Assembly: GCA_964475435.1 (NCBI GenBank)
Contig: CAYYWT010000021.1
Span: 1-17,635, forward strand
Direction of reading: 5' to 3'
DNA: 17,635 nt
DNA from: an uncultured Eubacteriales bacterium
GTDB taxonomy: Bacteria; Bacillota; Clostridia; TANB77; RGIG9151
Below are positions 3,301 to 17,635 of the stretch, one piece after another. Both the position numbers and the translations under genes were made by a program. The first letter of the stretch is position 1; each line of letters starts with the position of its first letter. The notes below the pieces were generated by a model, which saw nothing but the letters and a program-made list of their open reading frames with translations, did not search any database and had not been told where the DNA came from.

Positions 3301-3829
3301 CGTTATTTATTGTATATGAAGCTTCTACGATATTGCTCTCATCTTCTGTAATTGTTACAACTACAGTAGAATTAAGTTCAATCGTACTTCCGCTTTTAAT
3401 ACTTGCAGTAATTTCAGGAGCTGATGTATCTCCTTGTATATAATATGTATACTCATCAATTGTAGATAATCCAGCACCATTTTTTACTTCTATATGGAAC
3501 TTATATTCTCCCGGTTTTGATGGCGCAGCAGGAGTCATACCATAATAAGGATTTCTATTAACTAAGTTAGAAAATTCAATTTTCTTCGTACCGTCAACCA
3601 TTGTACGAGCTGAGTCATTATTAGCCCAATAATAGCTTATATCCTTTATATAACTTTCATCATCCTTAACTGTAAATGTAAAAGTAGACTTTGCTTCAAT
3701 TATACTACCTGAACTTTTTCCCATCGAAATCGAAGGAGCGGTAGTATCTGTTACAGCCATCGCATTACCTGTAAACAATACCGTTGCTACCAACATTATT
3801 AAAAATACTTTACTAATAAATGTTTTCAT
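365..3829 (-). CDS. Large secreted cell-surface protein: signal peptide, 8 Ig-like ~95-aa repeats, DUF11-like beta domain, C-terminal SLH (S-layer homology) repeats
   Basis: N-terminus MKTFISKVFLIMLVATVLFTGNAMA is signal-peptide-like. AGGAGG lies 8 nt upstream of the ATG. The recurring module is D(T/N)xAPxI..SGS..(T/K)DD..I....Y.W....G.H.L.V.A.D..GN. SLH motifs are FTDVEGHWA, ITRAELA, ITRAEAV and FTDLTPSHWA. Confidence 0.9.
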   Translation of the reverse strand: MKTFISKVFLIMLVATVLFTGNAMAVTDTTAPSISMGKSSGSIIEAKSTFTFTVKDDESYIKDISYYWANNDSARTMVDGTKKIEFSNLVNRNPYYGMTPAAPSKPGEYKFHIEVKNGAGLSTIDEYTYYIQGDTSAPEITASIKSGSTIELNSTVVVTITEDESNIVEASYTINNGISDKVTNNANKKVIFNIKNFNLEKTYIIDVKAKNADGVEATKRLIYYVKDTTVKDTEVPKVTASVKDETVTVKVTDNIELASIKYSWNSTTNYKAVSGVSGKSKTFELELPSTTKTQVLRVIAKDTSGNETTFEYTIEVEEKVITTPVITADYASGSTIDLLTTVTFTIKDSGNDIVEASYDCNGIYQKITEKDGKVANRTWEIRLTNFNLVQKYTVVITAKNEAGVETSKTFIYYVRGNEEVDTEAPQVGVSVAGGSNVSAGQTITVILKDNKALKSGKYSWDSTTSYKTVSNVSGTSKTFDVTVPSTVGTHTLRVLATDQAGNESGVKTFVYYVKATEEVDNNAPTIKANPSSGNIEPSANITITATDDVSLMTVGYYWDDEEATTKTISGKTYSITVDAPSTVGKHILYTFAYDKSGNETKKDFTYNVLDNEKPTISVNPKSGSTVVGGKVIKATLRDDSELAKVEYNWKGKTVTKETISGTYEVIELPAISSKAGTYYMYITVTDATGNSTSGIYTYYVEDDDNDDEGDIPTVDADPSKGTLEYGDKITITAEDDDGIDYVEYYWDDDDAKKKYSDEFTVRVPSEEGKHYLYVRATDELGNRCSYERFTYTIEKNNYPGNPDITGDLNKKVKDLRVEIRNGDDKIKFEPEEEILYYIDYYNGSSSKVTNAKIVVDLPTYLEGIEASDSGKVTSKKVTWNLGTLNKGEYGRVSFTAQYTSDKYNEKIITVPAKIYSGSSLKDTSTVRNLIYCDDGSGSGSHAAYCVGYPSGAFRPNGNITRAELATMVANIEGITSTYRGQFTDVEGHWAADKIQACVERGYVNPLGYNYFGAEQYATRADLAYAIAAILDVEDLEPIFIYSSDLAYSDARCAMEQLLRLGIMDGYSDGTSKPDKNITRAEAVTIINNYLFRGELYTRSYNYSYNYNTNYNYGGSNYVLQFTDLTPSHWAYGHIMEAVNDHRYVRTLDGNEEML

Positions 3830-3869
3830 TTTTTTACCTCCTAAATAGAATTCACATAATTACTTTATT

Positions 3870-3898
3870 AGTTTAACACATATTATAATTTTTTGCAA
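3870..3898 (-). promoter_or_regulatory. Candidate sigma-A promoter of the surface-protein gene: TTGCAA (3893-3898) - 17 nt - TAAACT (3870-3875)
   Basis: Hexamers and spacing read from the minus strand. This would give a ~35-nt 5' UTR. Confidence 0.4.
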
Positions 3899-4015
3899 CA
3901 CTTTTATGTAAACTTATTTAAAATTAAATCCATAATTACTAAATATCTATTTTTTATTAAAATCATTACTAATTATACTATTCTATTAAAGTTTTAATTT
4001 ACACAACTAAATTTA

Positions 4016-5335
4016 TTATTGCTTTATTAACGAAATCGCATCAGTCGCAGTTACTAACTTTTGTTTACCGGAAATCATATTTTTTACCGTAACCATTCCA
4101 TTTTTTCTCTCATCCTCACCTATAATTACAACAAAAGGAATTTGAAGTTTATCTGCATATTTCATCTTAGCCTTCATTTTCTTATCTTGTAAATAAACCT
4201 CGGCGTTTATACCATTCTCTCTAAACAAAGTCGCAACCCTCAAGCAGTCACTTATCTCATTATCCATAGAGATAATCAAAACATCAGCAATCGACTTTTT
4301 ATCACAATTTATTAAACCAGCTTCATTCAATTGGTAAAACAACCTAGTAAGACCAATCGAAATTCCGACACCCGGCAATTTTTTATTGGTATAATATTCA
4401 GCTAAATTATCATACCTTCCGCCCGAACAAACACTTCCTAAACTGCGATAATTAGTTAAAAATGTTTCATATACCGTACCCGTATAATAATCAAGACCTC
4501 TTGCAATTTTTAAATCAATAGTAAAATGAGTATCAGGCACATTCAAAACTCTAATATACTTTACTACTTCTTTTAATTCATTTAATCCTTCTGTAAAAAG
4601 TTCATCTTCTACGCCTAAATTATCTAACGCAAGTAGCTTTTCGTCCGTCGTTCCCTCAATAAGCACAAAATCTTTTATAGTATTTATAGCTTCTTTACCT
4701 ATATTAAGTTTTTCAAGTTCTTCACATACAGCCTCTACTCCGATTTTATCTAATTTATCTATAATTCTCATAACATCCATGGAAACATCAGATAAACCAA
4801 GGTGTCTAAAAATACCGTTTAAAATTTTTCTATTATTTATACAAATAACAAACTCAGAAAAGCCAAGTTCTCTAAAAGTATTATAAATAACACTAGGCAT
4901 TTCGGCATCATTAATAATAGAAAGCTCGCCGTCTCCGATAATATCAATATCACATTGATAGAACTCCCTAAAACGCCCCTTTTGAGGTCTCTCTCCTCTA
5001 TATACCTTACCGATTTGGTATCTTCTAAACGGAAATCCAAGCTCACCATAATGCTCCGCAACAAACTTAGCCAAAGGCACAGTTAAATCAAACCTCATAA
5101 CTAAATCATTATCTCCCTTAGAAAATTTATAAATTTGTTTCTCCGTTTCACCGCCAGCTTTAGCAAGTAATACTTCTCCAAGCTCTAAGATAGGCGTATC
5201 AAGCGGTAAAAAGCCAAATCTTTCATATGATTTTTGAATTTTTTCTTTCATTTGATTAAATAAAATTTGCTCATTAGGAAGTAATTCCATAAATCCGGGC
5301 AAAGTTCTCGGTTCAATCCTCTTTACATCGCTCAT
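4016..5335 (-). CDS. hisS: Histidine--tRNA ligase (class II aaRS, with C-terminal anticodon-binding domain)
   Basis: Motifs: KQIYKFSKGDNDLVMRFDLTVP, RRYQIGKVYRGERPQKGRFREFYQCDIDIIG, and GGRYD (in SVCSGGRYDNLAEYY). Start chosen at MSDVKR (ATG 5335) because AAGGAG lies 7 nt upstream. The longer ORF to 5398 would swallow its own promoter. Confidence 0.95.
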   Translation of the reverse strand: MSDVKRIEPRTLPGFMELLPNEQILFNQMKEKIQKSYERFGFLPLDTPILELGEVLLAKAGGETEKQIYKFSKGDNDLVMRFDLTVPLAKFVAEHYGELGFPFRRYQIGKVYRGERPQKGRFREFYQCDIDIIGDGELSIINDAEMPSVIYNTFRELGFSEFVICINNRKILNGIFRHLGLSDVSMDVMRIIDKLDKIGVEAVCEELEKLNIGKEAINTIKDFVLIEGTTDEKLLALDNLGVEDELFTEGLNELKEVVKYIRVLNVPDTHFTIDLKIARGLDYYTGTVYETFLTNYRSLGSVCSGGRYDNLAEYYTNKKLPGVGISIGLTRLFYQLNEAGLINCDKKSIADVLIISMDNEISDCLRVATLFRENGINAEVYLQDKKMKAKMKYADKLQIPFVVIIGEDERKNGMVTVKNMISGKQKLVTATDAISLIKQ

Positions 5336-5398: not shown

Positions 5399-5599
5399 TG
5401 TAACCGATTTATATTCTAGCCAAAAATTGTAAAATTCAAAATTTATCGTTGCTAAATCTAAAAAAGGGGGCTGTAAAAAAATAAGTTGTAACTTAACAAA
5501 TCTAATAATAAATTCTTCAAATTCGTTCTAAAACTAACATCTCCATCATAAATTGCATTAGAAAAAACAAGCCGAATATCGGCAGAATGGAGATGACTT

Positions 5600-7117
5600 A
5601 TGATAGACTTAACCCATAACTCAATTACACTAAATCAAACTTATCCGGAAGTAAATGACTCATTCTTTATCGAAGGAGACGTCATAATTCCGGACGTAAA
5701 ACCGGATGTCGATTCGGTACTTTTTGTAGACGCTTTACCTGTCATAAATGACTACTCGGTAAACTCCGGACAAATAACATTTTCCGGTGATTGTGAATTT
5801 AACATTCTATATGTTTCAAATGAAACGCCAAGCGAAATAATTCGAATTTCAACATCAATACCGTTCAAAAATACATTTGCGGCCAAAAATCTAACTTCAG
5901 ACTCTTGTGTAAACTTAACCATAACTCCTCAAAAAGTATCTTCCTTAATTTTAAACGGTAGAAAACTAAGTGTTTCCTCAGAACTAAATGCAAATCTAAA
6001 ATATTCAAATCAAAATAATATAACCTACATTGAGTCCGCAGGAGATAATGAAACAATTAAAGTACTTAATTCAACCAAAACAATTCCCACTTTCTTAGGA
6101 GAAACATCAAGCAAAACAACATTAAAAGATACTGCAATGTTACCAACAGACTTGCCAAACATAAAAGACATAATAAAATACGACAGTACCGTAAGTAACG
6201 AAGAAAATGTAATATCTGACGGAAAAATAATTATAAAAGCTGACTTTAATATAAAAATCTATTATACAACTGATAATTCAAACGAAATATCAATATTTGA
6301 AACTACTATTCCGTTTTCAACCTTTATAGATATAAACGGAATTAACGAAGACGATTTTACAGAAGTAATCAACACTATTAAAAATGTAGGATTAAAAATA
6401 CTTCCTGACTCTGACGAACTAATGAGAGTAATTGAAGTTGACACAGAAATAGAAACAAACGCAAAAGCATTTCAAAACTCAGATATAAATGTAATAGAAG
6501 ATATATACGATACAACTAGAAATTTATTACCTCAAAGAGACGAAATATTCTATGAAACAAATAGTCCACTTCAAAGTGAAGACATATCTTTAAGAGACTC
6601 CATATCCATTCCGGAAGATGAAGAAATAAAAATTCTTTCATCTTTTGCAAGAATAAAAAGTCTAAACTTAGAAAAAGAAAACAATAATAATATGTTAAAA
6701 GGAGTAATAGACGTAACAATACTATATTCTGTTCCATCAAGCGGAAGAATAAACAGTGTTACATTAGATATGCCATTAGAACATGTCCTATCCTCTGATA
6801 TAGACATATTGTCAAACGCTTCGATAACAAGCATTGAAGTTACTCCAAACGGGCAAGATAAATATGACATAAAAATATCAATGACAATTTCCGGATATAA
6901 AAACTCGTCAAACCAGCTTTCATTGCTACGTGACGTAATAGAAATGGAAGAATTACCACTTATAAATTCGGGTATAACAATATATTTCGTAAAACCCGGA
7001 GACACACTTTGGAAAATAGCAAAGCGCTTTTATACAACAATAGATAAATTGGTAAAAATAAACAACATTCAAAATCCTGACGTATTAGACGTAGGAAAAG
7101 CATTAGTAATCAGCTAA
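5600..7117 (+). CDS. DUF3794 (SPOCS) repeat protein with C-terminal LysM domain, SipL/SpoVID-like
   Basis: The N-terminus (..IEGDVIIPDVKPDVDSVLFVDALPVINDYSV..GQITFSGDCEFNILY) fits the DUF3794 pattern. The C-terminus YFVKPGDTLWKIAKRFYTTIDKLVKINNIQNPDVLDVGKALVI is a LysM domain. GGAG lies 7 nt upstream of the ATG. Confidence 0.85.
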   Translation: MIDLTHNSITLNQTYPEVNDSFFIEGDVIIPDVKPDVDSVLFVDALPVINDYSVNSGQITFSGDCEFNILYVSNETPSEIIRISTSIPFKNTFAAKNLTSDSCVNLTITPQKVSSLILNGRKLSVSSELNANLKYSNQNNITYIESAGDNETIKVLNSTKTIPTFLGETSSKTTLKDTAMLPTDLPNIKDIIKYDSTVSNEENVISDGKIIIKADFNIKIYYTTDNSNEISIFETTIPFSTFIDINGINEDDFTEVINTIKNVGLKILPDSDELMRVIEVDTEIETNAKAFQNSDINVIEDIYDTTRNLLPQRDEIFYETNSPLQSEDISLRDSISIPEDEEIKILSSFARIKSLNLEKENNNNMLKGVIDVTILYSVPSSGRINSVTLDMPLEHVLSSDIDILSNASITSIEVTPNGQDKYDIKISMTISGYKNSSNQLSLLRDVIEMEELPLINSGITIYFVKPGDTLWKIAKRFYTTIDKLVKINNIQNPDVLDVGKALVIS

Positions 7118-7122
7118 AAAAT

Positions 7123-7360
7123 AAAAGAGGCTGTAAAAAAATCATAAAATTCATAACGTATTGTACTGTACCTCGCTCACCAAAAATATTTTTTGTGGAA
7201 AGTGTAGAGTTAATTTAAAGTACGGAACGGAGCTTACGCTCACATCCTGGGCAACTTTAAAATGTGTTCTACATAGAGGGACAAAAAAGCAATTTTTGTT
7301 TCGCTTGGTACAGTACAATACGTTATTTAAATGATAACCGATTTTTTTACAGCCTCTTTT
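7123..7360. repeat. 238-bp long palindromic intergenic element (repeat family copy a), probable bidirectional terminator between convergent genes
   Basis: Perfect 21-bp outer arms: aaaagaggctgtaaaaaaatc (7123-7143) / gatttttttacagcctctttt (7340-7360). Perfect 20-bp inner arms: ataacgtattgtactgtacc (7153-7172) / ggtacagtacaatacgttat (7307-7326). Further imperfect pairing occurs inside. Confidence 0.8.
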
Positions 7361-7686
7361 TATGCCACTTTTATTCCTGTATCAATAACCTCTCTAATAA
7401 AAGGCGTTCTCGCTTCTTTATAATCTTGTATTCTTATTAAATGTGGCTCAATCCTTGTATCTATACTTCGTCTTAAGCGCATCAAATTTAATTCTTCATC
7501 AATTATATCATTATTAAAATCGTCTGTTATAACAGCAATATCAATATCACTATCATCGTTACTTGTTCCTTTAGCATAAGAGCCAAACAAAATAATTGCA
7601 TACACATTATAATTTTCACAAATCGTTTCAACATATTTTTGAACTATTTCCATTATCATTCCGTCAGTATTAACTTTTTCAGCCAT
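7360..7686 (-). CDS. Minimal nucleotidyltransferase (MNT, pol-beta superfamily), partner of the adjacent HEPN protein
   Basis: Contains the GSxxxG..DxD signature: ILFGSYAKGTSNDDSDIDIAVI. GGAGGT lies 6 nt upstream of ATG 7686. An alternative ATG at 7659 forms an ATGA overlap with the HEPN stop. Confidence 0.85.
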   Translation of the reverse strand: MAEKVNTDGMIMEIVQKYVETICENYNVYAIILFGSYAKGTSNDDSDIDIAVITDDFNNDIIDEELNLMRLRRSIDTRIEPHLIRIQDYKEARTPFIREVIDTGIKVA

Positions 7687-8057
7687 ATTCTTACCTCCTC
7701 AATATTTTTTATTTGTTCTAATGTGTATTCATCAGTACATTTTACATAGAATTCTCGTTTATAATCATCATATCTTGCACTCATATTAAATTTGGTAATT
7801 ATATCCAATAAATCTTCTTGCTTTTCAGTCAATTTTAGTCCAATTTTCCCGGCTAAATACAGTAAATCATGGCTTTTGGGGGCATATGCAGCATTTTTAT
7901 TTTGCTTAGCATAAAGAGCTTTTAATAACTTTTCTATTACTAAATGTCCAAAAAATAAACAATAGCTATTCTTCTTATTATTATACAATACTCTCATTAC
8001 ATTATAATCTTCTTCTGAACTTTCAAGCCAAAAATTCATCAAATCAATATTGTTCAT
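7656..8057 (-). CDS. HEPN domain protein (PF05168-like)
   Basis: Contains ..GHLVIEKLLKALYAKQ..KSHDLLYLAGKIGL..ARYDDY.., which is typical of HEPN helices. Start chosen at MNNIDLMNFW (ATG 8057), which has GGGGGAG just upstream. It overlaps the MNT gene by 31 nt. Confidence 0.75.
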   Translation of the reverse strand: MNNIDLMNFWLESSEEDYNVMRVLYNNKKNSYCLFFGHLVIEKLLKALYAKQNKNAAYAPKSHDLLYLAGKIGLKLTEKQEDLLDIITKFNMSARYDDYKREFYVKCTDEYTLEQIKNIEEVRIWLKKLILTE

Positions 8058-8191
8058 AACGCTCCCCCAACTTATTATATAATTAACTCGATAAAACAAT
8101 TATATCATAAAAGTTAATACTTTCACACTAATTTGAATAATTTTTTACCACATATTAAAAATATCATCCCAAAACAAAATTAAATTTAACT

Positions 8192-8518
8192 TTACTCAAC
8201 TTCTTCAGATATAACATTAAGCATTTTAATTATCATCTCATACTTTTCAGGCTTAATTCTTCTAATTAAAAATTGTATTTCTTCTTCCATAGCTTTTCTA
8301 TCATCAGAATTAGCTCCTTCAATAAAGTACGCAACCGGCTTCCCAAGTACAGTAGATAACTCCTCTAATCTTTGAAGATTAAAACACTTATCGCCCGACT
8401 CAACTTGACTAATATAGCCAATTGAAACATTTAATTTATCCGCTAACGCCTTTTGATTCATACCTTTTTCAATTCTTAAATCCTTTATCTTTTTGCCTAT
8501 AACCTCGTAATTTAACAT
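8192..8518 (-). CDS. XRE-family helix-turn-helix transcriptional regulator
   Basis: IGKKIKDLRIEKGMNQKALADKLNVSIGYISQVESG is a Cro/C1 HTH. Start chosen at MLNYEV (ATG 8518), which has GGGGGGA upstream. Confidence 0.85.
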   Translation of the reverse strand: MLNYEVIGKKIKDLRIEKGMNQKALADKLNVSIGYISQVESGDKCFNLQRLEELSTVLGKPVAYFIEGANSDDRKAMEEEIQFLIRRIKPEKYEMIIKMLNVISEEVE

Positions 8519-8638
8519 ATATATCCCCCCATATAACCTAATTTCATTATATGTAGGCAAATTAATGTTATACAGAAACTTTGATGTATATTTTTTAAGT
8601 TTAGAGTGAGAAATATACTACTCCATAGTAAAAAAAAG

Positions 8639-8730
8639 CTGTAAAAAAACTCATCCATCATTAATATAAAGCATTGCACTATACCCAGCGAAACAAAGTA
8701 CAGTGCAATGCTTTATGAGTTTGTTTACAG
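8639..8730. repeat. 92-bp palindromic element (repeat family copy b, internally deleted relative of 7123-7360), terminator of the upstream operon
   Basis: Perfect 15-bp stem: ataaagcattgcact (8666-8680) / agtgcaatgctttat (8702-8716). Outer arms ctgtaaaaaaactcat (8639-8654) / atgagtttgtttacag (8715-8730) have 1 mismatch. The left end and the loop (cccagcgaaacaaagtac) align with copy a. Confidence 0.75.
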
Positions 8731-9597
8731 TCCTTTCAAAAAATCAATATATTGCTTAATCAACTCTTTTTCCTTACCATGGTAAGAATGATCTGCTCCA
8801 TCTATATATCCAACATCTAATTTCGCATTTTTAACAAGCTTTTTTATAAGATTAACAGTCTCATCGGCAGTTTTAGTCGTCGTTTCATTTACTGTTCCGT
8901 ACCTCATAAATAAAGGCTCTTCAATTACATTAAGCGAATCAGCTTTCCATTCTTTATCCTCATAAAATACAGTATTAAATTCACTTTCACAATTAAAAAT
9001 CGTATTAAACGTGCCGGCTGAAATAGGTTTCGGATAAAACTCAGGTCTTAGTAACTCCTTACCTTTTCCCTTCTTAATCTTAGCCTCCGCAATCGCCATC
9101 GCAATTTTATAAGCTTTTTCTCCGGCAATTTGGCGATACTTATCCGACAAAGCAGTAAGCGATAAAAGCCCAACACTCGCAACATTTACTTTTTTCTTCG
9201 GATACCAATTCAATATTTTACTGCACCCTAAACTATGGCCGACAATATTTATTTCTTTAAATCCACGTTTCTCCATAGCTTTTATAGCCGCCTCAATATC
9301 GTAATAAGCATCATATGGATTTTCAAAAGCAGTTCCGTACAAATTATCCATATTTAAATTACCCATTTGAGCTCCTCTATTGTTAAAAGTAAAATACGCA
9401 TATCCGGCTTTATTCAATTCTTCTCCGAAAATATCATCTCGCCTTTTCAAACAATCACTATACATTCCGTGTAAAAAAATAACAACTTTATCACATTTTC
9501 TTATTTGCCTAAATATACCTTTGCTTTCAGGCAAATATAGCAAACCTACCAATTTTAAATTATCCTCGGTAGTAAAAAAAACTTTAGAAATATTCAT
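8725..9597 (-). CDS. Alpha/beta-fold hydrolase (serine hydrolase, unknown substrate)
   Basis: Nucleophile elbow GHSLG (IVGHSLGCS). HG oxyanion region VIFLHGMYSD. C-terminal DGADHSYHG, with a likely catalytic His. The start ATG shares a base with the truA stop (TAATG). Confidence 0.8.
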   Translation of the reverse strand: MNISKVFFTTEDNLKLVGLLYLPESKGIFRQIRKCDKVVIFLHGMYSDCLKRRDDIFGEELNKAGYAYFTFNNRGAQMGNLNMDNLYGTAFENPYDAYYDIEAAIKAMEKRGFKEINIVGHSLGCSKILNWYPKKKVNVASVGLLSLTALSDKYRQIAGEKAYKIAMAIAEAKIKKGKGKELLRPEFYPKPISAGTFNTIFNCESEFNTVFYEDKEWKADSLNVIEEPLFMRYGTVNETTTKTADETVNLIKKLVKNAKLDVGYIDGADHSYHGKEKELIKQYIDFLKGL

Positions 9598-10334
9598 TAG
9601 TAATAAACCTCCACTAAATATAATCCTTGTGCCGGAACAGTCTTCCCCGCACGTGACCTATCTTTAGACTTTATAATATCCGTAATTTCCTCAGGTTTTA
9701 TTTTCCCAAATCCAACTTCAACAAGCGTTCCGACAATAATCCTAACCATATTATACAAAAATCCATCGCCGGTAAACAAAAAAATAATTCTTCCGTCATC
9801 ACGTTTTTTCATTTGAACCTTAGTAATAGTCCTTATCGTATCTTTTACAGAACTTCCGGATGCCATAAATCCTTTAAAATCATATGTACCCTCAAAATAT
9901 TCAGACGCTTTTTTCATCTTTTTATAATCAAGTTCTTGGTTAATATGATACTCTCTGTAAAAATCAAGCGCAGAACGTGTTTTAGAGTTATTTATGATAT
10001 ACATATATTTTTTCCCTTTTACACTATACCTTGCGTGAAACTTTTCATCCATTTCTTCCGCACTTTTTATAACAATATCTTTCGGCAAAAAGGAATTCAC
10101 GGCAATCGGTAACTTTTCAACAGGAATAGTAGAATCCGTTTTAAAATTAGCCGTTTGACCTATCGCATGAACTCCGGCATCTGTCCTTCCCGAACCATTT
10201 AACTTAATTTCCTCTCCCGTAACCTGATGAATGGCATTAGTAATCATCTCTTGAATACCAATGCCATTTTTTTGAGATTGCCAACCATTATACTTTGTAC
10301 CGTCATATTCAATAATAAACTTAATATTTCTCAA
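9597..10334 (-). CDS. truA: tRNA pseudouridine(38-40) synthase TruA
   Basis: Contains IEYDGTKYNGWQ and the catalytic GSGRTDAGVHA motif. The ORF track starts at TTG 10343, but GGAGGA abuts that codon with no spacer. TTG 10334 (MRNIKF..) has 9-nt spacing, so it is preferred. The start is uncertain by 9 nt. Confidence 0.92.
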   Translation of the reverse strand: MRNIKFIIEYDGTKYNGWQSQKNGIGIQEMITNAIHQVTGEEIKLNGSGRTDAGVHAIGQTANFKTDSTIPVEKLPIAVNSFLPKDIVIKSAEEMDEKFHARYSVKGKKYMYIINNSKTRSALDFYREYHINQELDYKKMKKASEYFEGTYDFKGFMASGSSVKDTIRTITKVQMKKRDDGRIIFLFTGDGFLYNMVRIIVGTLVEVGFGKIKPEEITDIIKSKDRSRAGKTVPAQGLYLVEVYY

Positions 10335-10336
10335 AA

Positions 10337-10957
10337 CTAACAATCCTCCAATTTCAATACATCTTTATTTTTCACAATATAATCATAACCGGAAAATATA
10401 GTCGCAACAGTCGCAACAGCAACCATAATTATAGCTAAAATTCCAACAACTCCTTCAACCGGAGCAACATTAAAATTAGCAATTAAATTTTGGAACTTTT
10501 GAACCATAAATATATCTGATTCATCAGCAGGAAGTCTGTAATTATCTATCAACAATAAAGAAATCGCAATAATTTGAGTAACTGTTTTCATTTTTCCCCA
10601 AATACTTGCAGCAATTACTCTACCTTCGTTACTGGCAATTAATCTAATTCCTGTAACAATAAACTCCCTTGCTATAATCACAGTAGCAATCCAAGAAGGC
10701 AATTTATCTTGACCAACTAAAGCAATTAACGCCGCAGCAACTAAAAGTTTATCAGCCAAAGGGTCTAAAAATTTACCAAAGTTCGTAACTAAATTTTTAG
10801 AACGAGCCAATCTACCATCAATAAAATCCGTAAGCGATGCAACAATAAATATAAAAAAGGCAATTAAATTAGCATACGGAACAGGTAAAAACATAACTAT
10901 CATAAAAATAGGCACTAAAAAAATTCTAACTAACGTTATTTTGTTTGGTAAATTCAT
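10337..10957 (-). CDS. pgsA: CDP-diacylglycerol--glycerol-3-phosphate 3-phosphatidyltransferase (CDP-alcohol phosphatidyltransferase family)
   Basis: Signature DGx2ARx8Gx3Dx3D: DFIDGRLARSKNLVTNFGKFLDPLADK. Multiple TM helices. Start chosen at MNLPNK (ATG 10957), which has GGAGGA 7 nt upstream. Confidence 0.9.
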   Translation of the reverse strand: MNLPNKITLVRIFLVPIFMIVMFLPVPYANLIAFFIFIVASLTDFIDGRLARSKNLVTNFGKFLDPLADKLLVAAALIALVGQDKLPSWIATVIIAREFIVTGIRLIASNEGRVIAASIWGKMKTVTQIIAISLLLIDNYRLPADESDIFMVQKFQNLIANFNVAPVEGVVGILAIIMVAVATVATIFSGYDYIVKNKDVLKLEDC

Positions 10958-10975
10958 AAAAATTTCCTCCATTCT

Positions 10976-11665
10976 TTAATTTCTAATTAAAATAGGCATA
11001 AAATTAAGCAAATCACAAGATGTACATAAAAATTTAATTCCTTCTTTATCATACTCCATATAATCAGACTTACCGTGAAGATGTCCGAAAATACACAACT
11101 TTACACCATATCTTTTTAATATATCAACATATTCCGCATTAATCCCTAAGTTGTAATGAAGCATAACAATAAATTCACTGTACCCCGCCTTTATCGCTTC
11201 CTCAAGCGAGCGAATTAATCTCATTTTTTCACGCTCATAAGCCTTTTTATCAGTTTCTTCATCTACATCCGTACTACCAAGTTCCCAACCTCTTGTACCA
11301 CAAACAGCGACGTTATCCAACCCTACAAAAGAATTATGAATAAACTCAACAGAATCAAACTCATTTTCCTTTTTAAATAATTTAAGTTTATTTTGAGTTT
11401 CCCACCAATAATCGTGATTACCTTTAATCATAATTTTTTTCCCCGGTAATGACTCTAAAAACTTAAAATCCGGAATAGTTTCCTCTAAATACATTCCCCA
11501 TGAAAAATCGCCGGCAAGCAAGACTACATCTTCCGGCTTTATATTTTTTAGCCAATTTTCTTTTATTTTTTCTTCATACGCCACCCAATTTTTCCCGAAT
11601 ACATCCATAGGCTTATCTTTTACTCCAAAAGATAAATGGAAATCGGAAATCGCCCAAATTGCCAT
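10976..11665 (-). CDS. Metallophosphoesterase (calcineurin-like phosphoesterase family)
   Basis: Metal-binding motifs: SDFH (AISDFHL), GDFSW, GNHDYWW, GHLHG. Confidence 0.85.
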   Translation of the reverse strand: MAIWAISDFHLSFGVKDKPMDVFGKNWVAYEEKIKENWLKNIKPEDVVLLAGDFSWGMYLEETIPDFKFLESLPGKKIMIKGNHDYWWETQNKLKLFKKENEFDSVEFIHNSFVGLDNVAVCGTRGWELGSTDVDEETDKKAYEREKMRLIRSLEEAIKAGYSEFIVMLHYNLGINAEYVDILKRYGVKLCIFGHLHGKSDYMEYDKEGIKFLCTSCDLLNFMPILIRN

Positions 11666-11680
11666 ATTTATTACTTCTCC

Positions 11681-12451
11681 TTATTCATATCTTTTCAACT
11701 CATAATTTAGCTCATTAAAATACTCTATAATTTCAGCCACAGCATCCGCAGTCTTTTGCTTTCCATAAGTATCATGCATTATAACAGTAACATCTTTTCT
11801 AGTTCCCATAGTATCCTTTACAGCCTTTACCAAGTCTTCGGCTTTCGTCGTAAAAGTTCTCGAATCATAACTTTCGCAATTCCAACCTATTACGCTAAGT
11901 CCCTTCTCAGTTAAGTACTCTTTATATGAGCTTCCTATTTTTGTTCCATATGGAATTCTAAAAAACTTAGGAGCCTCACCTATAATATCATATACCACAT
12001 CGTATGTCTTGTCCACCTCTTCTTTAAAAGCTGTTAACGAATTAAACATACTTTTTTTATGAGTATAAGAATGAAGTCCTATGGTATGCCCTTCATCATA
12101 AGCTCTTTTAACAAGTTCAGGATGACTCTTTGCATAGCTTCCTATTACAAAAAACGTAGCCTTCACATTTTTTTCTTTTAACGTATCTAAAATTTGAGGC
12201 GTAATTGTAGTAGAAGGGCCATCATCAAAAGTAAGATATGCAACTCCGTCATAAATGTGTTCTTCTATCGGTTCATCAATTATCGGCTCCGGTTCAGGTT
12301 CTACCAATAATTTATCCATAGTATCATCTGACGTAATTATACCGGGATTAAAAACATCCGCATATACCGCTTGACGTTCCGACGTAGTCATCGCCACACA
12401 TACAGTCGCCAAAACCGCAAAACACAAAAACAAAGTTGTAACCTTTTTCAT
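11681..12451 (-). CDS. Secreted polysaccharide/peptidoglycan deacetylase (NodB homology domain, CE4)
   Basis: N-terminal signal sequence MKKVTTLFLCFAVLATVCVA. CE4 motifs TFDDGP, HSYTH, RIPYG. Confidence 0.9.
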   Translation of the reverse strand: MKKVTTLFLCFAVLATVCVAMTTSERQAVYADVFNPGIITSDDTMDKLLVEPEPEPIIDEPIEEHIYDGVAYLTFDDGPSTTITPQILDTLKEKNVKATFFVIGSYAKSHPELVKRAYDEGHTIGLHSYTHKKSMFNSLTAFKEEVDKTYDVVYDIIGEAPKFFRIPYGTKIGSSYKEYLTEKGLSVIGWNCESYDSRTFTTKAEDLVKAVKDTMGTRKDVTVIMHDTYGKQKTADAVAEIIEYFNELNYELKRYE

Positions 12452-12463
12452 TTAACTTTCCTC

Positions 12464-13159
12464 CTAATTTTGTTCTTTTAACGTCTTTCTCCATGCAAAC
12501 ATCCCATAAATCGAATTTATTAAATATATAGCCCACATAATCAACAATTCTACATCATTCATATTATTAAAATTAATCACTATAAACATTACAAGTCCGA
12601 AGAAATCCGAAATTATAAATAAAACCCACTGTTCAATATACTTTTTAGTCATTAAAAACGTAGCAACACATACCGAAACAGAAACAATCGCATCTAACCA
12701 TACATTACTTCCGTTAAAAAAATTATCGGAAATAATAGCAAAAGCACAAACAGCCCCAATCATCGCACCACTTAAAATTATTCGTCCCGATTTACTAAGT
12801 CGCTTTATTCCGGATTTTTCTTTACCATCTTTTCTACTCCAATTAATGTAACCGTAAATCAAAATCGGGAAACTATAAAATAAATTATAGCTCATACTAA
12901 GATATAATTCTTTAGAATAACAAACAATCGCATATAGTATAACATTAGCAATACCGAAAAAATACGCGAATTTTGACTGCTTCGCTATTCCGAAAACATA
13001 AGTTACGCCACATATAGCTAAAACTCCCGAAATCAACTCTATAACAACATTAGAATCAGAATTTACTATAAATAAAAATTTATATATACTTCCTAAAAGA
13101 ATTAGTACTACCGAAAAAGCCACCCATAATTTATCATATTTACTCCATTTAGTTCCCAT
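12464..13159 (-). CDS. pnuC: PnuC-family nicotinamide riboside (vitamin) transporter
   Basis: Polytopic membrane protein containing ..AKQSKFAYFFGIANVILYAIVCYSKELYLSMSYNLFYSFPILIYGYINW.., typical of PF04973. The start is uncertain. ATG 13159 (MGTKWSKYDKLW) is preferred. The ORF track's GTG 13225 has no SD. Confidence 0.8.
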   Translation of the reverse strand: MGTKWSKYDKLWVAFSVVLILLGSIYKFLFIVNSDSNVVIELISGVLAICGVTYVFGIAKQSKFAYFFGIANVILYAIVCYSKELYLSMSYNLFYSFPILIYGYINWSRKDGKEKSGIKRLSKSGRIILSGAMIGAVCAFAIISDNFFNGSNVWLDAIVSVSVCVATFLMTKKYIEQWVLFIISDFFGLVMFIVINFNNMNDVELLIMWAIYLINSIYGMFAWRKTLKEQN

Positions 13160-13261
13160 ATCATCAAAATCCCTTCCTACGATATTTTCATCGACATTTA
13201 AAATAAAAAATTTATATATTTTCACATTAAATTTTCGTTACTATTCAGTCTACTTGTTTCA

Positions 13262-13381
13262 AAAAGATAATATCATTAGTTTAAAGAGCGAGTTCCACAG
13301 TTGAAAAATTCAAAATAAGAATTTAATCGAATTTTTCAACGAGGACGTGTTTGAGCGGGAAAACTAATGATATTATCTTTT
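13262..13381. repeat. 120-bp palindromic element in the pnuC-operon leader (element c)
   Basis: Perfect 21-bp outer stem: aaaagataatatcattagttt (13262-13282) / aaactaatgatattatctttt (13361-13381). Perfect 12-bp inner stem: gttgaaaaattc (13300-13311) / gaatttttcaac (13329-13340). Confidence 0.8.
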
Positions 13382-13421
13382 GATAAGTAATTAAGTCTGA
13401 CCTGTAACAAATTTTAAAGAC

Positions 13422-13460
13422 AAAAAGAAAAACGTATAATTATTGATAAACTTTTATACG
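13422..13460 (-). terminator. Weak intrinsic terminator after rsmI
   Basis: 7-bp stem cgtataa (13433-13439) / ttatacg (13454-13460) with a 14-nt loop. On the minus strand it is followed by TTTTTCTTTTT. Confidence 0.4.
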
Positions 13461-13480
13461 CTTTTCAAAACGAAAACTAT

Positions 13481-14311
13481 TTACACATTCAATTCCCCAT
13501 ATATCTCTCTTTTAGAAACGCCTCTGTCTGATGCAACTTTTTTCGTAGCATCCATTCTAGCCAATCCCTTAGCCAAATAATACTCATAATGTTCATCTAT
13601 CGTCATATCTTGCCAAAACGTTTCTTTTATAGACTCTCCTTTATATCCTTCAACCACAACAACAAATTCACCTTTAGGCGGTTCATCATTATATTTTTCT
13701 ATCGCTTCGTCTAAAGTACATCTTATAATTTCTTCGTGAATTTTAGTCATCTCACGCGCTAAGGCGATGTTCCTGTTTCCAAAATACTCTCTCATATCTT
13801 TTAGGGTACTTTTTAACTTATGCGGAGCTTCATAAAAAATCATAGTTCTTTGTTCACGCTCTAAATCTCCAAGCCTGTCCTTTCTGTTTTTCTTATTCAT
13901 AGGAAGAAAACCTTCAAACGAAAACCTACCCGTAGTTAAACCTGAAACAATAAGAGCAGAAGTCGCAGCAACAGGTCCCGGAACCGGAACAACAGTTATA
14001 TTTTCATCTATCGCCATTCTTACCAATTCTTCACCCGGATCAGAAATCGCAGGAGTTCCGGCATCAGATACAAGAGCTATATTTTTCCCTTCTTTTAGCA
14101 AAGAAACTATATACTCGCCTTTTTTATCTTCATTATGTCTAAAAAAACTCGTAAGAGGCTTTGAAATTTCAAAATGATTTAATAATTTAATAGTTTGCCT
14201 GGTATCTTCAGCCGCGATAATATCTACTTCTTTCAATACTCTAATCGCCCTTAAAGTAATATCTTCTAAATTACCAATCGGCGTAGAAACCAAATATAAA
14301 ATTCCGCTCAT
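13481..14311 (-). CDS. rsmI: 16S rRNA (cytidine1402-2'-O)-methyltransferase RsmI
   Basis: The N-terminus GILYLVSTPIGNLEDITLRAIRVLKEVDIIAAEDTR is the RsmI/tetrapyrrole-methylase fold. Start chosen at MSGILY (ATG 14311), which has GGAGGA 7 nt upstream. Confidence 0.93.
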   Translation of the reverse strand: MSGILYLVSTPIGNLEDITLRAIRVLKEVDIIAAEDTRQTIKLLNHFEISKPLTSFFRHNEDKKGEYIVSLLKEGKNIALVSDAGTPAISDPGEELVRMAIDENITVVPVPGPVAATSALIVSGLTTGRFSFEGFLPMNKKNRKDRLGDLEREQRTMIFYEAPHKLKSTLKDMREYFGNRNIALAREMTKIHEEIIRCTLDEAIEKYNDEPPKGEFVVVVEGYKGESIKETFWQDMTIDEHYEYYLAKGLARMDATKKVASDRGVSKREIYGELNV

Positions 14312-14338
14312 AAAAATATCCTCCAATATGTATAACTA

Positions 14339-14421
14339 TTGAGATTGTAAAAAGCAATTTTTATTTCTCGTGGCAAAGCACAACATTTTATTTAACAAAA
14401 AATAATTTCCTACAATCTCAA
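14339..14421. repeat. 83-bp inverted-repeat element between lysC and rsmI (element d), related to the 7123-7360 family
   Basis: 11-bp arms: ttgagattgta (14339-14349) / tacaatctcaa (14411-14421). The internal gtaaaaagcaatttttatttctcgtggca resembles gacaaaaaagcaatttttgtttcgcttggta at 7280-7310. Confidence 0.6.
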
Positions 14422-14431
14422 CAGAAAAAAT

Positions 14432-15592
14432 TTAATTTACCATTTTATTATGAATCGAATTAAGTGCTGTGTCAACATCTTTATTATCAACTATAACAGA
14501 AAACTTTATCTCAGAACTGCTTATTAATTTAATCTCTACATTGCTTTCAACAAGAGCTTCGTACAATTTTTTAACAACTTCCGGTTTATCGATCATTCCA
14601 CATCCTACCAAAGAAACTTTCCCACAATTCGGTATAAACTCAACTCGGTAATCATCAGCTAAAATCTCCTTTATTTTTTCCACTTTTTCATTTTTAACAG
14701 TAAAAGAAATCTCATTCATTCCAATACTTTGACCAATCACATCAACATTAATTCCATTATCAGCTAACTTAGTAAATACAGAATACGATTTATCTAAATC
14801 GTAAACAGTGACAATAGTTACATCTCTATCAGCAGTAAAACCTGTAACTAAAGCATTTTCAAAACCACTATTTTCTATTTTTGTTCCCTCCTCATCCGAA
14901 AAACTTCCCGAAGAAGTTAATTTAACATTATATTTTTTCGCCAATTCAACTGCCCTGTTATTAAGTACCTTCGCTCCTAAACTCGCTAATTCAAGCATAG
15001 TATCATATTGAATAGAATTTAGCTTTACCGCATTTTTTACAACCCGCGGATCAGCTGTATAAATTCCGTCAACATCACTATATATCTCACATCTATCCGC
15101 TTTAAGAGCGTGTGCCAAAGCAACAGCAGTAGTATCAGAACCGCCTCTACCCAAAGTCGTAATATCGCCAAATTCGTCTACACCTTGAAATCCGGCAACA
15201 ATAACAACATTTCCTTTAGCCAACTCGTCAAAAATCCTATATGGTCTAATTTTATCTATACGAGCATTAAGATGTCCGTTATCAGTAAAAATTCCTGCCT
15301 GTTCACCGGTAAGTGAAACGGCAGGAACACCTATTTTATTTAAAGTCATAACTAAAAGCGTCATAGACTGCATTTCTCCGGTAGATAATAAAACATCCAT
15401 TTCCCTATCAGAAACATAATTACTAATAGAACGTGCTTTTTCAATTAATAAATCAGTAGTTTTTCCCTGCGCCGAAACGACAACAACAACGTCATTTCCA
15501 GTATCTTTACTCTTCTTTATCCTATATGCAACATTCATTAATTTTTCATTATCCGCAACAGAACTGCCACCGTATTTTTGTACAATTATCAT
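14432..15592 (-). CDS. lysC: Aspartate kinase (aspartokinase with C-terminal ACT domains)
   Basis: Contains IIVQKYGGSSV, GRGGSDTTAVALA and DVDGIYTADPR, plus two ACT-like C-terminal repeats. Start chosen at MIIVQKYGG (ATG 15592), 9 nt after AAAGGA. Confidence 0.93.
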   Translation of the reverse strand: MIIVQKYGGSSVADNEKLMNVAYRIKKSKDTGNDVVVVVSAQGKTTDLLIEKARSISNYVSDREMDVLLSTGEMQSMTLLVMTLNKIGVPAVSLTGEQAGIFTDNGHLNARIDKIRPYRIFDELAKGNVVIVAGFQGVDEFGDITTLGRGGSDTTAVALAHALKADRCEIYSDVDGIYTADPRVVKNAVKLNSIQYDTMLELASLGAKVLNNRAVELAKKYNVKLTSSGSFSDEEGTKIENSGFENALVTGFTADRDVTIVTVYDLDKSYSVFTKLADNGINVDVIGQSIGMNEISFTVKNEKVEKIKEILADDYRVEFIPNCGKVSLVGCGMIDKPEVVKKLYEALVESNVEIKLISSSEIKFSVIVDNKDVDTALNSIHNKMVN

Positions 15593-15650
15593 GTTATTCA
15601 TTCCTTTCAATCGGCATAACTTGGTAAGTACACGCCTACAATAACATAAT

Positions 15651-15658
15651 ATTATACA
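15651..15658 (-). promoter_or_regulatory. Extended -10 element TGTATAAT upstream of lysC
   Basis: Minus strand reads ..catttgTATAATatt.. about 55 nt upstream of the start. No good -35 was found. Confidence 0.4.
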
Positions 15659-15674
15659 AATGTTTATTTTGACA

Positions 15675-16688
15675 CTACTTTCTTTGAAGTCTTAAATCAT
15701 TTCCAAAAAATCTGCAAATTTCAAAATTTCCCAAAATTCTCGACATAATTCTTTGATCGTAATAATTCACTAAATCTTTTAAATCCTTATTTGTAGAAAT
15801 TAAAGTCTTCGTCCCCTTTTTATAAGCATTTAAAAGACGAGTATTTAAAATATTAAACAACTCAGAACGTCTGGCTTCAGTCATATTTTCCGAACCTAAA
15901 TCATCAATAATCAGTAAATCAACATTGAATAACTCATCATATTGAGACTCATCAAAATTCTCCGTATCTCCCTTTCTATAATCCATAACTAAATCCATAA
16001 GTCTTCCGGAAGTTTGGTATAAAACTGTTTTTCCGCTATCTAGAACAGCTTTAGCAATGGAATTACTTAAAAACGTTTTACCAAGACCTGTCCCCCCTGT
16101 AAAAAGTAAACTCTTCGTATCTTTTTTATCAAAATTCTTAACAAAATTCTCAGAAATCTCTTTTATTCTCAAAATATTCTCCCTAGGAGACTTTGAACTT
16201 CCATAAGCCTTTTCATTAACCTCATCCGAAAAAATATTCGCGTTAAATGTATCAAAATTCTCTTTATCTATATTATATATTTGAGACTGATTATATGTAT
16301 AATCAATTAATTTTTGTCTAAAGCAAGAACAATTTTTAGCTCCGGTTATACTTCCTATAATACCTGTATCTTCACATATTTTACAAACGAAATTAGGCTT
16401 TAAATATTCCTCATCAACGCCCATATTTTTTAAGATAACAGCTTTTTGGTTCTTCAACGCCTCTATCTTCTCGTTTAACTCATTTACAGCTTCAATTCTT
16501 TTAGAATCGTCATCAATAAAAATAATCGACTTAGTAACTTCCATACCTATCTTTTTAATCTTATCATCTATCTCTAAAATTTGAGGCTCTTTTTCATAAA
16601 TTTCCTTCTTCTTTCTTTCAACTTCAGCCAAAGCCGAATTACGATTATTTTCGTACTCCTGTTGAATTTTTCTATATATATCTTGCAT
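15675..16688 (-). CDS. DnaC/DnaI/IstB-like AAA+ ATPase (putative helicase loader) with N-terminal coiled coil and Cys-rich zinc-ribbon-like motif
   Basis: Walker A GGTGLGKTFL. Walker B LLIIDDLG. CKICEDTG..(x13)..CSC. Start chosen at MQDIYRK (ATG 16688), which has GGAGGT 6 nt upstream. Confidence 0.8.
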   Translation of the reverse strand: MQDIYRKIQQEYENNRNSALAEVERKKKEIYEKEPQILEIDDKIKKIGMEVTKSIIFIDDDSKRIEAVNELNEKIEALKNQKAVILKNMGVDEEYLKPNFVCKICEDTGIIGSITGAKNCSCFRQKLIDYTYNQSQIYNIDKENFDTFNANIFSDEVNEKAYGSSKSPRENILRIKEISENFVKNFDKKDTKSLLFTGGTGLGKTFLSNSIAKAVLDSGKTVLYQTSGRLMDLVMDYRKGDTENFDESQYDELFNVDLLIIDDLGSENMTEARRSELFNILNTRLLNAYKKGTKTLISTNKDLKDLVNYYDQRIMSRILGNFEICRFFGNDLRLQRK

Positions 16689-16763
16689 AAGTTTACCTCC
16701 CATATAAATTACCTACGTTCATTATAACACAAAAACCGTAATTTTTCATATTTTCTATTCCTC

Positions 16764-16792: not shown

Positions 16793-16843
16793 TTACCTTT
16801 ATCTATTAATTTGTAAACTAATTCATTCCCTTTAAAGTGCATT

Positions 16844-16872
16844 CCGGGGAAGATACAATGTATCTCCCCCGG
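16844..16872. other. GC-rich hairpin downstream of the lectin-fold gene (terminator-like, or a DGR VR-flanking hairpin)
   Basis: ccggggaagata (16844-16855) pairs with tatctcccccgg (16861-16872): 11 bp plus one A/C mismatch, with a 5-nt loop. The T-tract (ttttatcttctttttt) lies on the plus-strand side only. Confidence 0.6.
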
Positions 16873-16939
16873 TTTTATCTTCTTTTTTATTCTTTTAATT
16901 TCCTACTCCATAATTAGTTTGCATAATCAAACAACCTTT

Positions 16940-17119
16940 GCAACACCGCTCCAGGGTCCAGATTTACCGTATCGCGAGAACGGGACGGAACCCGTAGCTG
17001 CTGTAGCCACCGGCGCTGCCGAAGCCGAATACACCGGCGTTAGACGCACTGTTGTAGAGACCACCGCGTTTGAAAACAGGGCCGTTGGAATTCGGCGCGT
17101 ACGAGCCATCTCCACCCCA
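16940..17119 (-). other. Candidate DGR variable region (VR): GC-rich, NNC-codon-rich 3' end of the lectin/FGE-fold ORF plus ~25 nt past the stop
   Basis: Hand count gives 95/160 G+C over 16961-17120, against about 30% in the rest of the window. Codons: TGG GGT GGA GAT GGC TCG TAC GCG CCG AAT TCC AAC .. CTC TAC AAC AGT GCG TCT AAC GCC GGT GTA TTC GGC TTC GGC AGC GCC GGT GGC TAC AGC AGC TAC GGG TTC CGT. The exact boundaries cannot be set without the template repeat. Confidence 0.6.
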
Positions 17120-17635
17120 TGAGGTAGAACTTGAGCCACTGCTACTTGTCTCATAAACTGCATCGCCTTTTATGTTACTCCATGCCGCATAGTTATTAGC
17201 TGAGCTATCGCTTGTTCCAATTGGATATACATCTACATATTTACTTCCAGAGTCACTATACGAATTCACTAAACTACTTGCATAACTAGTTAAACTACTA
17301 TTATCATTGTCTACATATGCTGCTACATATTCATATGCTCCACCGGACAAGTCATATATTCCATATACATTATGGGTTGTACTTGCTTTAACTCCTCCGG
17401 CTGTATTCCAGGCGTTTGTTACTCCAGAGGCATAACCTGCATCTTGACTTCCGCCTGCGTTTCCAGTTATATAACTACTACTGTTATTTATATACGGTAT
17501 TCGTCCTATTGCGTTAGTTAAATACGCTACTGCTCCCCATTCTACGTTTTTCATTAAATGCGAATCTAAAGACCTATTTAAGTTATATGAGTAATCAAAC
17601 ATATCGCTTACGCTTAAACTTCTCCAAGATACTAC
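16964..17635 (-). CDS. C-terminal part of an FGE-sulfatase / C-type-lectin-fold protein (5' end outside window), candidate DGR target
   Basis: The frame is open to the window edge (..VVSWRSLSVSDMFDY..). Motifs: HLMKNVEWGAVAYL, NVYGIYDLSGGAYEYVA (compare GxYDMxGNVWEW), and RGGLYNSASNAGVF..GFRPVL at the C-terminus. Confidence 0.8.
   Translation of the reverse strand, partial: VVSWRSLSVSDMFDYSYNLNRSLDSHLMKNVEWGAVAYLTNAIGRIPYINNSSSYITGNAGGSQDAGYASGVTNAWNTAGGVKASTTHNVYGIYDLSGGAYEYVAAYVDNDNSSLTSYASSLVNSYSDSGSKYVDVYPIGTSDSSANNYAAWSNIKGDAVYETSSSGSSSTSWGGDGSYAPNSNGPVFKRGGLYNSASNAGVFGFGSAGGYSSYGFRPVLAIR

Follow-up and report, generated by a model that had tools for sequence, protein, structure and literature searches.

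In a diversity-generating retroelement (DGR), an error-prone reverse transcriptase (RT) rewrites the sequence of a variable repeat (VR). In Bordetella phage BPP-1, where the cassette runs target-avd-template repeat (TR)-RT, the target protein Mtd has a 3'-terminal VR on a C-type-lectin fold, with AAY variable sites and a G+C-rich 3' end. The Thermus aquaticus variable protein TaqVP (PDB 5vf4) is a C-type-lectin DGR protein of the FGE type, with variable residues at its C-terminus and an RGG...G.RP-type scaffold at its end. The DGR of Treponema denticola, which is chromosomal and non-phage, has TvpA as a target, along with up to seven others that are non-adjacent (Wu et al. 2018, PMC5758913); these are C-type-lectin/FGE-type proteins whose genes are scattered and rewritten in trans from the TR. 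Non-adjacent targets have been reported for 45 of 372 DGRs, and in ten DGRs they lie more than 100 kb away (PMC5758913). Large metagenomic DGR surveys seek repeats in the vicinity of an RT and state that they miss such remote targets (PMC8144416). Isolates of T. denticola that lack the core DGR have also been reported; they keep target genes with A-type VR differences, which are described as leftovers of DGR loss (Nimkulrat et al. 2016, PMC4891356).

The window (the whole 17,635-nt stretch of DNA that was analysed) is chromosomal DNA from a low-G+C, spore-forming Clostridia-type bacterium. It contains genes for SipL, histidyl-tRNA synthetase, aspartokinase, a large SLH-domain protein and a HEPN/nucleotidyltransferase pair, and the best named relatives of a neighbouring protein are 'Clostridia bacterium' MAGs. 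Scanning it against Rfam and for tRNAs returned nothing. The gene of interest runs in from the right-hand edge, its 5' end lying past 17635, and its features are collected in Table 1. On its 3' side, a 260-nt AT-rich spacer is followed by an IstB/DnaC-type AAA+ gene (15675-16703), in agreement with the spacer and DnaC-like gene read there in an earlier note that worked from the letters of the sequence.

Table 1. Coordinates of the target gene and of the elements at its 3' end
Feature	Position	Strand	Basis or location
Probable DGR target gene, 3' part: 223 codons + stop	16964..17635	minus	frame open from window edge to TAA
Probable variable repeat (VR): last 52 codons (SWGGDGSYAPNSNGPVFKRGGLYNSASNAGVFGFGSAGGYSSYGFRPVLAIR) + stop	16964..17122	minus	composition (~60% G+C), family variation
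24-nt G+C-rich tract directly after stop, ATCTGGACCCTGGAGCGGTGTTGC	16940..16963	minus	inside G+C maximum
Hairpin, perfect 13-bp stem + 3-nt loop, CCGGGGGAGATAC ATT GTATCTTCCCCGG	16844..16872	minus	~90 nt past stop

For the surroundings of the gene, the closest available relatives (L125-L128) proved informative: their DnaC-like protein is 93% identical at the amino acid level and the region 83% identical at the nucleotide level. Synteny with these contigs spans 13482-16707 and breaks exactly upstream of the DnaC-like gene (16704-16707); here the relatives have a DnaB_2 (DnaD-like) gene 53 nt upstream of the DnaC-like gene, whereas the window has the 260-nt spacer and the target gene. The position of the target gene at this breakpoint therefore indicates an accessory insertion or rearrangement. 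A second break in synteny lies below 13482, with an NMN transporter gene in the window versus a Lactamase_B gene in the relatives. A phage origin of the target gene was considered and rejected, as there were no viral or phage matches and the neighbours are housekeeping genes; tblastn of the target protein against phage genomes likewise gave no match.

A recount of the letters gave 95 G+C of 160 at 16961-17120, in a window of 32% G+C. When 160-nt segments were taken along the whole stretch, G+C averaged 0.320 (sd 0.053) and peaked at 0.606 in the segment starting at 16940, approximately 5.4 sd over the mean and the strongest compositional outlier of the window; the next-highest value outside the block was 0.456, at 13918. 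Third-position G+C climbs from ~0.05-0.35 in the upstream ~170 codons to 0.6-0.75 in the last ~55 codons. Third-position C accounts for 49% in the block, versus 15% in the remaining gene and 7% in the other genes of the window, third-position A falls to 11% versus 33-37% elsewhere, and A on the coding strand is halved (17% in the block versus 35%). From the W codon to the last sense codon, 26 of 51 codons end in C and 39 of 51 in C or T. Gly, Ser and Ala are abundant in the block peptide; amino-acid bias was nevertheless ruled out as the cause of the G+C anomaly, because synonymous third positions show the shift most strongly. These measurements reproduce exactly the counts and positions that the earlier note had reported here, namely the count of 95 of 160, a TGG (W) at 17117-17119, a TAA at 16964-16966, about half of 51 codons ending in C, and a G+C-rich tract continuing past the TAA into what is now the G+C maximum of the window. 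The figure of 32-43% G+C that it gave for the remaining gene was too narrow, the measured range being 30-50% in 90-nt bins.

Downstream of the stop codon, the G+C-rich 24-nt tract may represent the 3' boundary of the VR or an element resembling an IMH; its role is uncertain, since in the sister clade described below TR-VR homology ends at the stop codon, and fixing the limits of an IMH needs the TR. DNA folding of 16840-16990 gave z = -2.6 overall, and the 13-bp stem of the hairpin that lies beyond this tract was present in both the MFE and centroid structures. No T-run follows the hairpin, which may be terminator-like or a DGR target-site cruciform, both being putative assignments.

Searching the protein collection with the translated fragment gave 410 homologues, the best 72% identical and none identical. 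In their alignment, the upstream domain is conserved, including HLMKN.EWGAVAYL, GVKASTT.N.YGIYD.SGGA.EYV and GDAVYETS, and variation is confined to the last ~52 residues, where it falls at fixed columns between the invariant scaffold residues SW.GD..P..F.RGG......AG.F.F....G.....FRPVL. The proposal that a VR sits at the extreme C-terminus on an RGG-type scaffold is supported by this alignment, with the variation of the homologues restricted to the G+C-rich block. 

For the fold of the domain, profile searches and structure prediction were combined. In the HMM check put forward in the earlier note, PF03781 (FGE-sulfatase) scored 15.9 bits on the window protein (E 0.011), under the Pfam gathering threshold of 23.3, and it matched 26 of 28 family members weakly, the best at 3.7e-6. 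The family profile searched against the PDB matched 5vf4 at E 5e-4. AlphaFold applied to the window fragment (28 sequences) gave an unusable model with a pLDDT of 36, and the fold was instead assessed on a full-length homologue, P0004, which is 61-66% identical to the window protein; with 121 sequences, P0004 first, the model reached a pLDDT of 86 and a pTM of 0.90. A Foldseek search with this model returned TaqVP (5vf4) first (E 4e-8), then formylglycine-generating enzymes, then Mtd. From this ranking the claim of a lectin/FGE fold holds at the level of fold, and the target domain of the window gene is predicted to be C-type-lectin/FGE-like, its similarity to PF03781 likewise being at fold level only.

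One relative, P0002 (L001:10001-11110), has a more elaborate architecture. Its VR-like G+C-rich block is internal, at about 10470-10630, and the frame runs on without a stop into Flg_new (Listeria-Bacteroides repeat) domains, followed by a second family domain, of which the N-terminal part is present, as in a tandem multi-domain protein, the contig ending shortly after. The Flg_new repeats of one relative, together with a hydrophobic N-terminus in another, point to a surface location.

Compared with the described systems, TaqVP is the best structural and profile match to the family, which shares with it the FGE-type C-type-lectin domain, the C-terminal variable residues and the terminal scaffold; the resemblance amounts to ~16-18% identity and a TM-score of ~0.46, values that refer to the P0004 model rather than to the window protein. 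The window gene resembles the gene of BPP-1 Mtd in that its probable VR is 3'-terminal and belongs to a domain predicted to have a C-type-lectin fold, that its variable sites would be AAY codons, and that its 3' end is G+C-rich. Unlike the BPP-1 cassette, it lies in a non-phage setting with no TR, Avd or RT adjoining its VR, and its relatives show the order target-TR-avd-RT, or a core convergent with the target, in place of target-avd-TR-RT. A parallel in organization is the T. denticola DGR, with its chromosomal, non-phage location and its scattered targets of the same fold type. The differences are that the host here is an uncultured spore-forming Clostridia member, that the core is known from relatives only, that the accessory gene in these relatives is bAvd (for the Treponema type, HRDC is reported; Wu et al., PMC5758913), and that the target domain forms a separate family with N-terminal WVWIPRY...HPAF...AKFEAS motifs. 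The window gene would join those known DGR systems in which a target has its core not adjacent on the usual side.

The compositional patch recurs in dispersed relatives of the gene. In L002, L003 and L004, third-position G+C is 0.60 in the last 55 codons versus 0.18-0.25 in the remaining gene. No RT was found near the target gene within 10 kb on each side in L003 and L004, or within 10 kb downstream in L002, whose target gene is 122 nt from the contig end. Three paralogues from a sister clade (P0014, P0066 and P0015) share one contig of 1.52 Mb, on which they were located at 0.72, 0.85 and 1.27 Mb, with distances of 0.12-0.55 Mb between them, among housekeeping neighbours and with no RT within 10 kb of any. 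When the 3' ends of these paralogues and of L002 were aligned, the backbone was identical from the S-W codons to the stop, third positions included. Differences occurred only at the first and second positions of particular codons, at sites that can be inferred to be A in a template, and differences at third positions were limited to codons for which AAA or GGA can be inferred in that template.

A template peptide was inferred from this paralogue pattern, and four synthetic Asn-rich TR peptides were searched against the protein collection. They retrieved 41 short ORFs (49-99 aa), for example MTNSNNPFFKRGGNYNNGTNAGVFNFNNNNGNDNSNNSFRPVLAVSVAL, which are ORFs called across TRs. One of these ORFs lies on the 38.6-kb contig L037 (ena:ERZ27241628:k141_700252), where a 622-aa family target (3451-5319) is followed by TR-like units, bAvd (PF22296) and an RT (PF00078); its VR is 91% identical to the unit at 10809-10930, and 11 of 11 mismatches fall at TR adenines. 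A survey of metagenomes with a degenerate TR-specific DNA motif then gave 83 loci, 48 of which contain a homologue of the L037 RT and 31 a family target; an RT or Avd is present in 27 of the 32 loci that span 5 kb or more. In at least 15 TR-VR pairs, 100% of the mismatches are at TR A, including those of L046 (25/25), L078 (30/30), L065 and L112 (22/22 each), L117 (22/22), and L048, L068 and L087 (21/21 each). The adenine-restricted mismatches that had been expected between TR and VR are therefore seen in relatives, whose TRs adjoin bAvd and RT. Tallied from coordinates, TR and RT are on the 3' side of the VR in ~13 of the 15 relatives that have both target and RT; in two, the RT is upstream of the target on the same strand, adjacent in L069 and ~8 kb off in L049.

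These templates also account for family members with no RT nearby. The TR in L084, L044 and L053 has exactly the same backbone as the dispersed VRs of the 1.52-Mb contig, and in L084 it lies ~1.5-2.8 kb from bAvd and RT. Homology between TR and VR in the sister clade begins ~5 codons past S-W and, like the backbone identity of the paralogue VRs, runs to the stop. When the remote VRs of L002, L003, L035 and L036 were compared with the L084-type TR, 80 of 86 mismatches were at TR adenines (Fisher p = 2e-41), a signature measured in these relatives and not in the window VR itself. It follows that family members without a nearby RT are written from a TR elsewhere, which fits the earlier suggestion that the TR and RT of the window gene lie at another site or act in trans.

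For the window itself, the absence of a core noted earlier stands: a repeat search found no second copy of the block and no TR inside the window, and the 15 larger ORFs scanned besides the target fragment gave no match to RT or Avd families. None of the three components was thus found in the 16.9 kb that extends 3' of the target. Exact patterns taken from the window VR (18-mer and 24-mer) gave no matches in viral contigs or metagenomes; in species-representative genome contigs an exact pattern gave 30 matches, all by chance in high-G+C genomes. A 20-mer from the sister-clade VR was also absent from the viral contigs. Among the TRs recovered, those nearest to the window VR are ~70% identical, with mismatches at all four bases. 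Two candidates were rejected as templates on this ground, the TR of P0135, which starts SWGGD as does the window VR, and that of L046/L078; in both cases mismatches occur at all bases and the TR is not cognate.

Taken together, the last 52 codons and stop, perhaps with the 24-nt tract, are probably the VR of a DGR target gene whose TR, Avd and RT are outside the window. The assignment rests on homology, fold, position and composition and is supported at the family level; the proposal of the earlier note that this is a DGR variable region gains from the composition, from the block-confined variation of the family and from the TRs that relatives carry beside bAvd-RT. That the window VR has a living cognate TR and RT, and is active at present, we infer from the family. 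According to this reading, the gene would encode a ligand-binding domain of the C-type-lectin/FGE-like kind, with the last ~50 residues as its variable face. A TR elsewhere in the genome would be transcribed and copied into cDNA by a bAvd-RT complex, with misincorporation opposite template adenines, and the cDNA would then replace the VR. Only Asn-type AAY codons would be randomised, at their first two positions. Scaffold codons would be copied faithfully, so that the A-poor, C-ending usage of the template is kept although it is foreign to a 32% G+C genome; the survival of this usage, together with the intact frame, suggests that the last rewriting was recent.

A live alternative, if an unlikely one, is that the VR is an orphan or fossil, written by a past DGR whose core (TR, Avd and RT) has since been lost, and now a fixed allele. 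The coreless window is consistent with this, as is the failure to find a cognate TR in the viral, genome and metagenome collections searched, which in combination with the T. denticola isolates that keep targets without a core (PMC4891356) is what keeps the alternative alive; given the break in synteny, the gene could moreover have come by transfer without its core. Against such a history, long neglect should have eroded both the foreign codon usage of the scaffold and the reading frame, each of which is preserved, and the remote copies of the sister clade that have no RT nearby find a clear counterpart in a living type of TR.

With regard to the location of a living core, relatives mostly have theirs on the 3' side of the VR, where the window has none, which leaves a core that is either remote or upstream as in L069 and L049. 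The core is most likely remote, with the window gene as a trans target, and less likely just upstream, beyond 17635. In its strictest form the upstream reading, an ordinary adjacent cassette in the order TR-avd-RT-target with nothing acting at a distance, appears somewhat less probable still than an orphan VR. The 5' end of the gene and the DNA upstream of it are outside the window, which leaves room for such a cassette, and the two relatives with an upstream RT provide a model for it. The prevailing 3' location of TR and RT speaks against it, given that the window has a spacer and housekeeping genes there, as do the several family members that are demonstrably far from any RT. 

That the block is not retroelement-derived at all, and reflects instead a Gly/Ala/Arg-rich protein, a horizontally acquired exon-like segment or RT-independent gene conversion between paralogues, is very improbable: the peptide is indeed rich in Gly, Ser and Ala and a single copy is visible in the window, but it is at synonymous third positions that the shift is greatest, the patch recurs in homologues from differing AT-rich genomes, and the differences among paralogues and against TRs are at template adenines, which gene conversion leaves unexplained.

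Two points extend past this locus. Sequence alone is enough to pick out a VR that is remote or orphaned in an AT-rich genome, through its patch of A-poor, C-ending codons, and a whole family of dispersed DGR targets exists in uncultured Clostridia. For the source organism, the patch would mark a protein with a binding face that is hypervariable or was so until recently.

It was also observed that TRs in the relatives can be arrayed. In L037, the interval between target and bAvd-RT (12313-13661) contains 13 TR-like units of 122-171 nt at 5559-12118, spaced 310-1830 nt. All 13 have invariant ends (CCTTGGGT..CGTGGTGGC and TCGTTCCGCTCCGTGCTTTC) and a conserved ~150-nt 3' element, after which several have terminator-like and promoter-like sequences. 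Their backbones differ, at 60-93% identity, some units have few Asn codons, and only the unit at 10809-10930 is cognate to the adjacent VR. Smaller arrays of 3-6 differing TR-like units were found in L055, L058, L072, L097, L106, L114 and L123, which are independent contigs with the same RT lineage. L109, L116 and L118, with an RT 97% identical in amino acid sequence to that of L037, have two units only, so that strains differ in the size of the array. In the sequenced loci examined, a cognate VR was found for a single unit per array and for none of the extra units.

Published DGRs include some that have two TRs and an atypical locus that has six (PMC6642488), and the literature searched yielded no description of arrays such as these. 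They are the most unusual thing met in this analysis and may matter more than the window itself. A tentative extension, which we regard as unlikely on present evidence, is that a single bAvd-RT, supplied with an array of differing TRs, rewrites many dispersed targets in trans, the window gene among them. If the other units did each serve a remote paralogue, the lineage would have a hypermutation system with many templates and many loci, far exceeding the one or two TRs of published cases.

A related observation was made in L038 (310-3410), where two TR-like units (~91% mutual identity) are duplicated at 100% identity on either side of a PDDEXK_2 nuclease/transposase-like gene (1524-2621). From this arrangement, recombination seems able to move or duplicate TR units.

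Several further elements were noted elsewhere in the window. An intergenic repeat element at 7124-7352 consists of nested inverted repeats, with perfect 21-nt arms at 7123-7143/7340-7360 and 45-nt arms at 7153-7197/7282-7326, and has no Rfam match. A partial copy (81%) lies at 14336-14424, between the aspartokinase and methylase genes, and in relatives the element fills this intergenic space too, at ~80% identity. At 71-182, a 32-nt tandem repeat (3.5 copies, 81% matches, consensus ATCACACTTTTGCAACCTATCTACCAAGTTTT) sits downstream of a gene for a 1154-aa SLH/PKD/Big surface protein (365-3829, minus strand). Lastly, the overlapping HEPN (7656-8099) and Pol-beta-type nucleotidyltransferase (7360-7686) genes on the minus strand (7360-8099) look like a HEPN/MNT toxin-antitoxin-type pair, and an HTH_3 regulator is encoded at 8192-8560.
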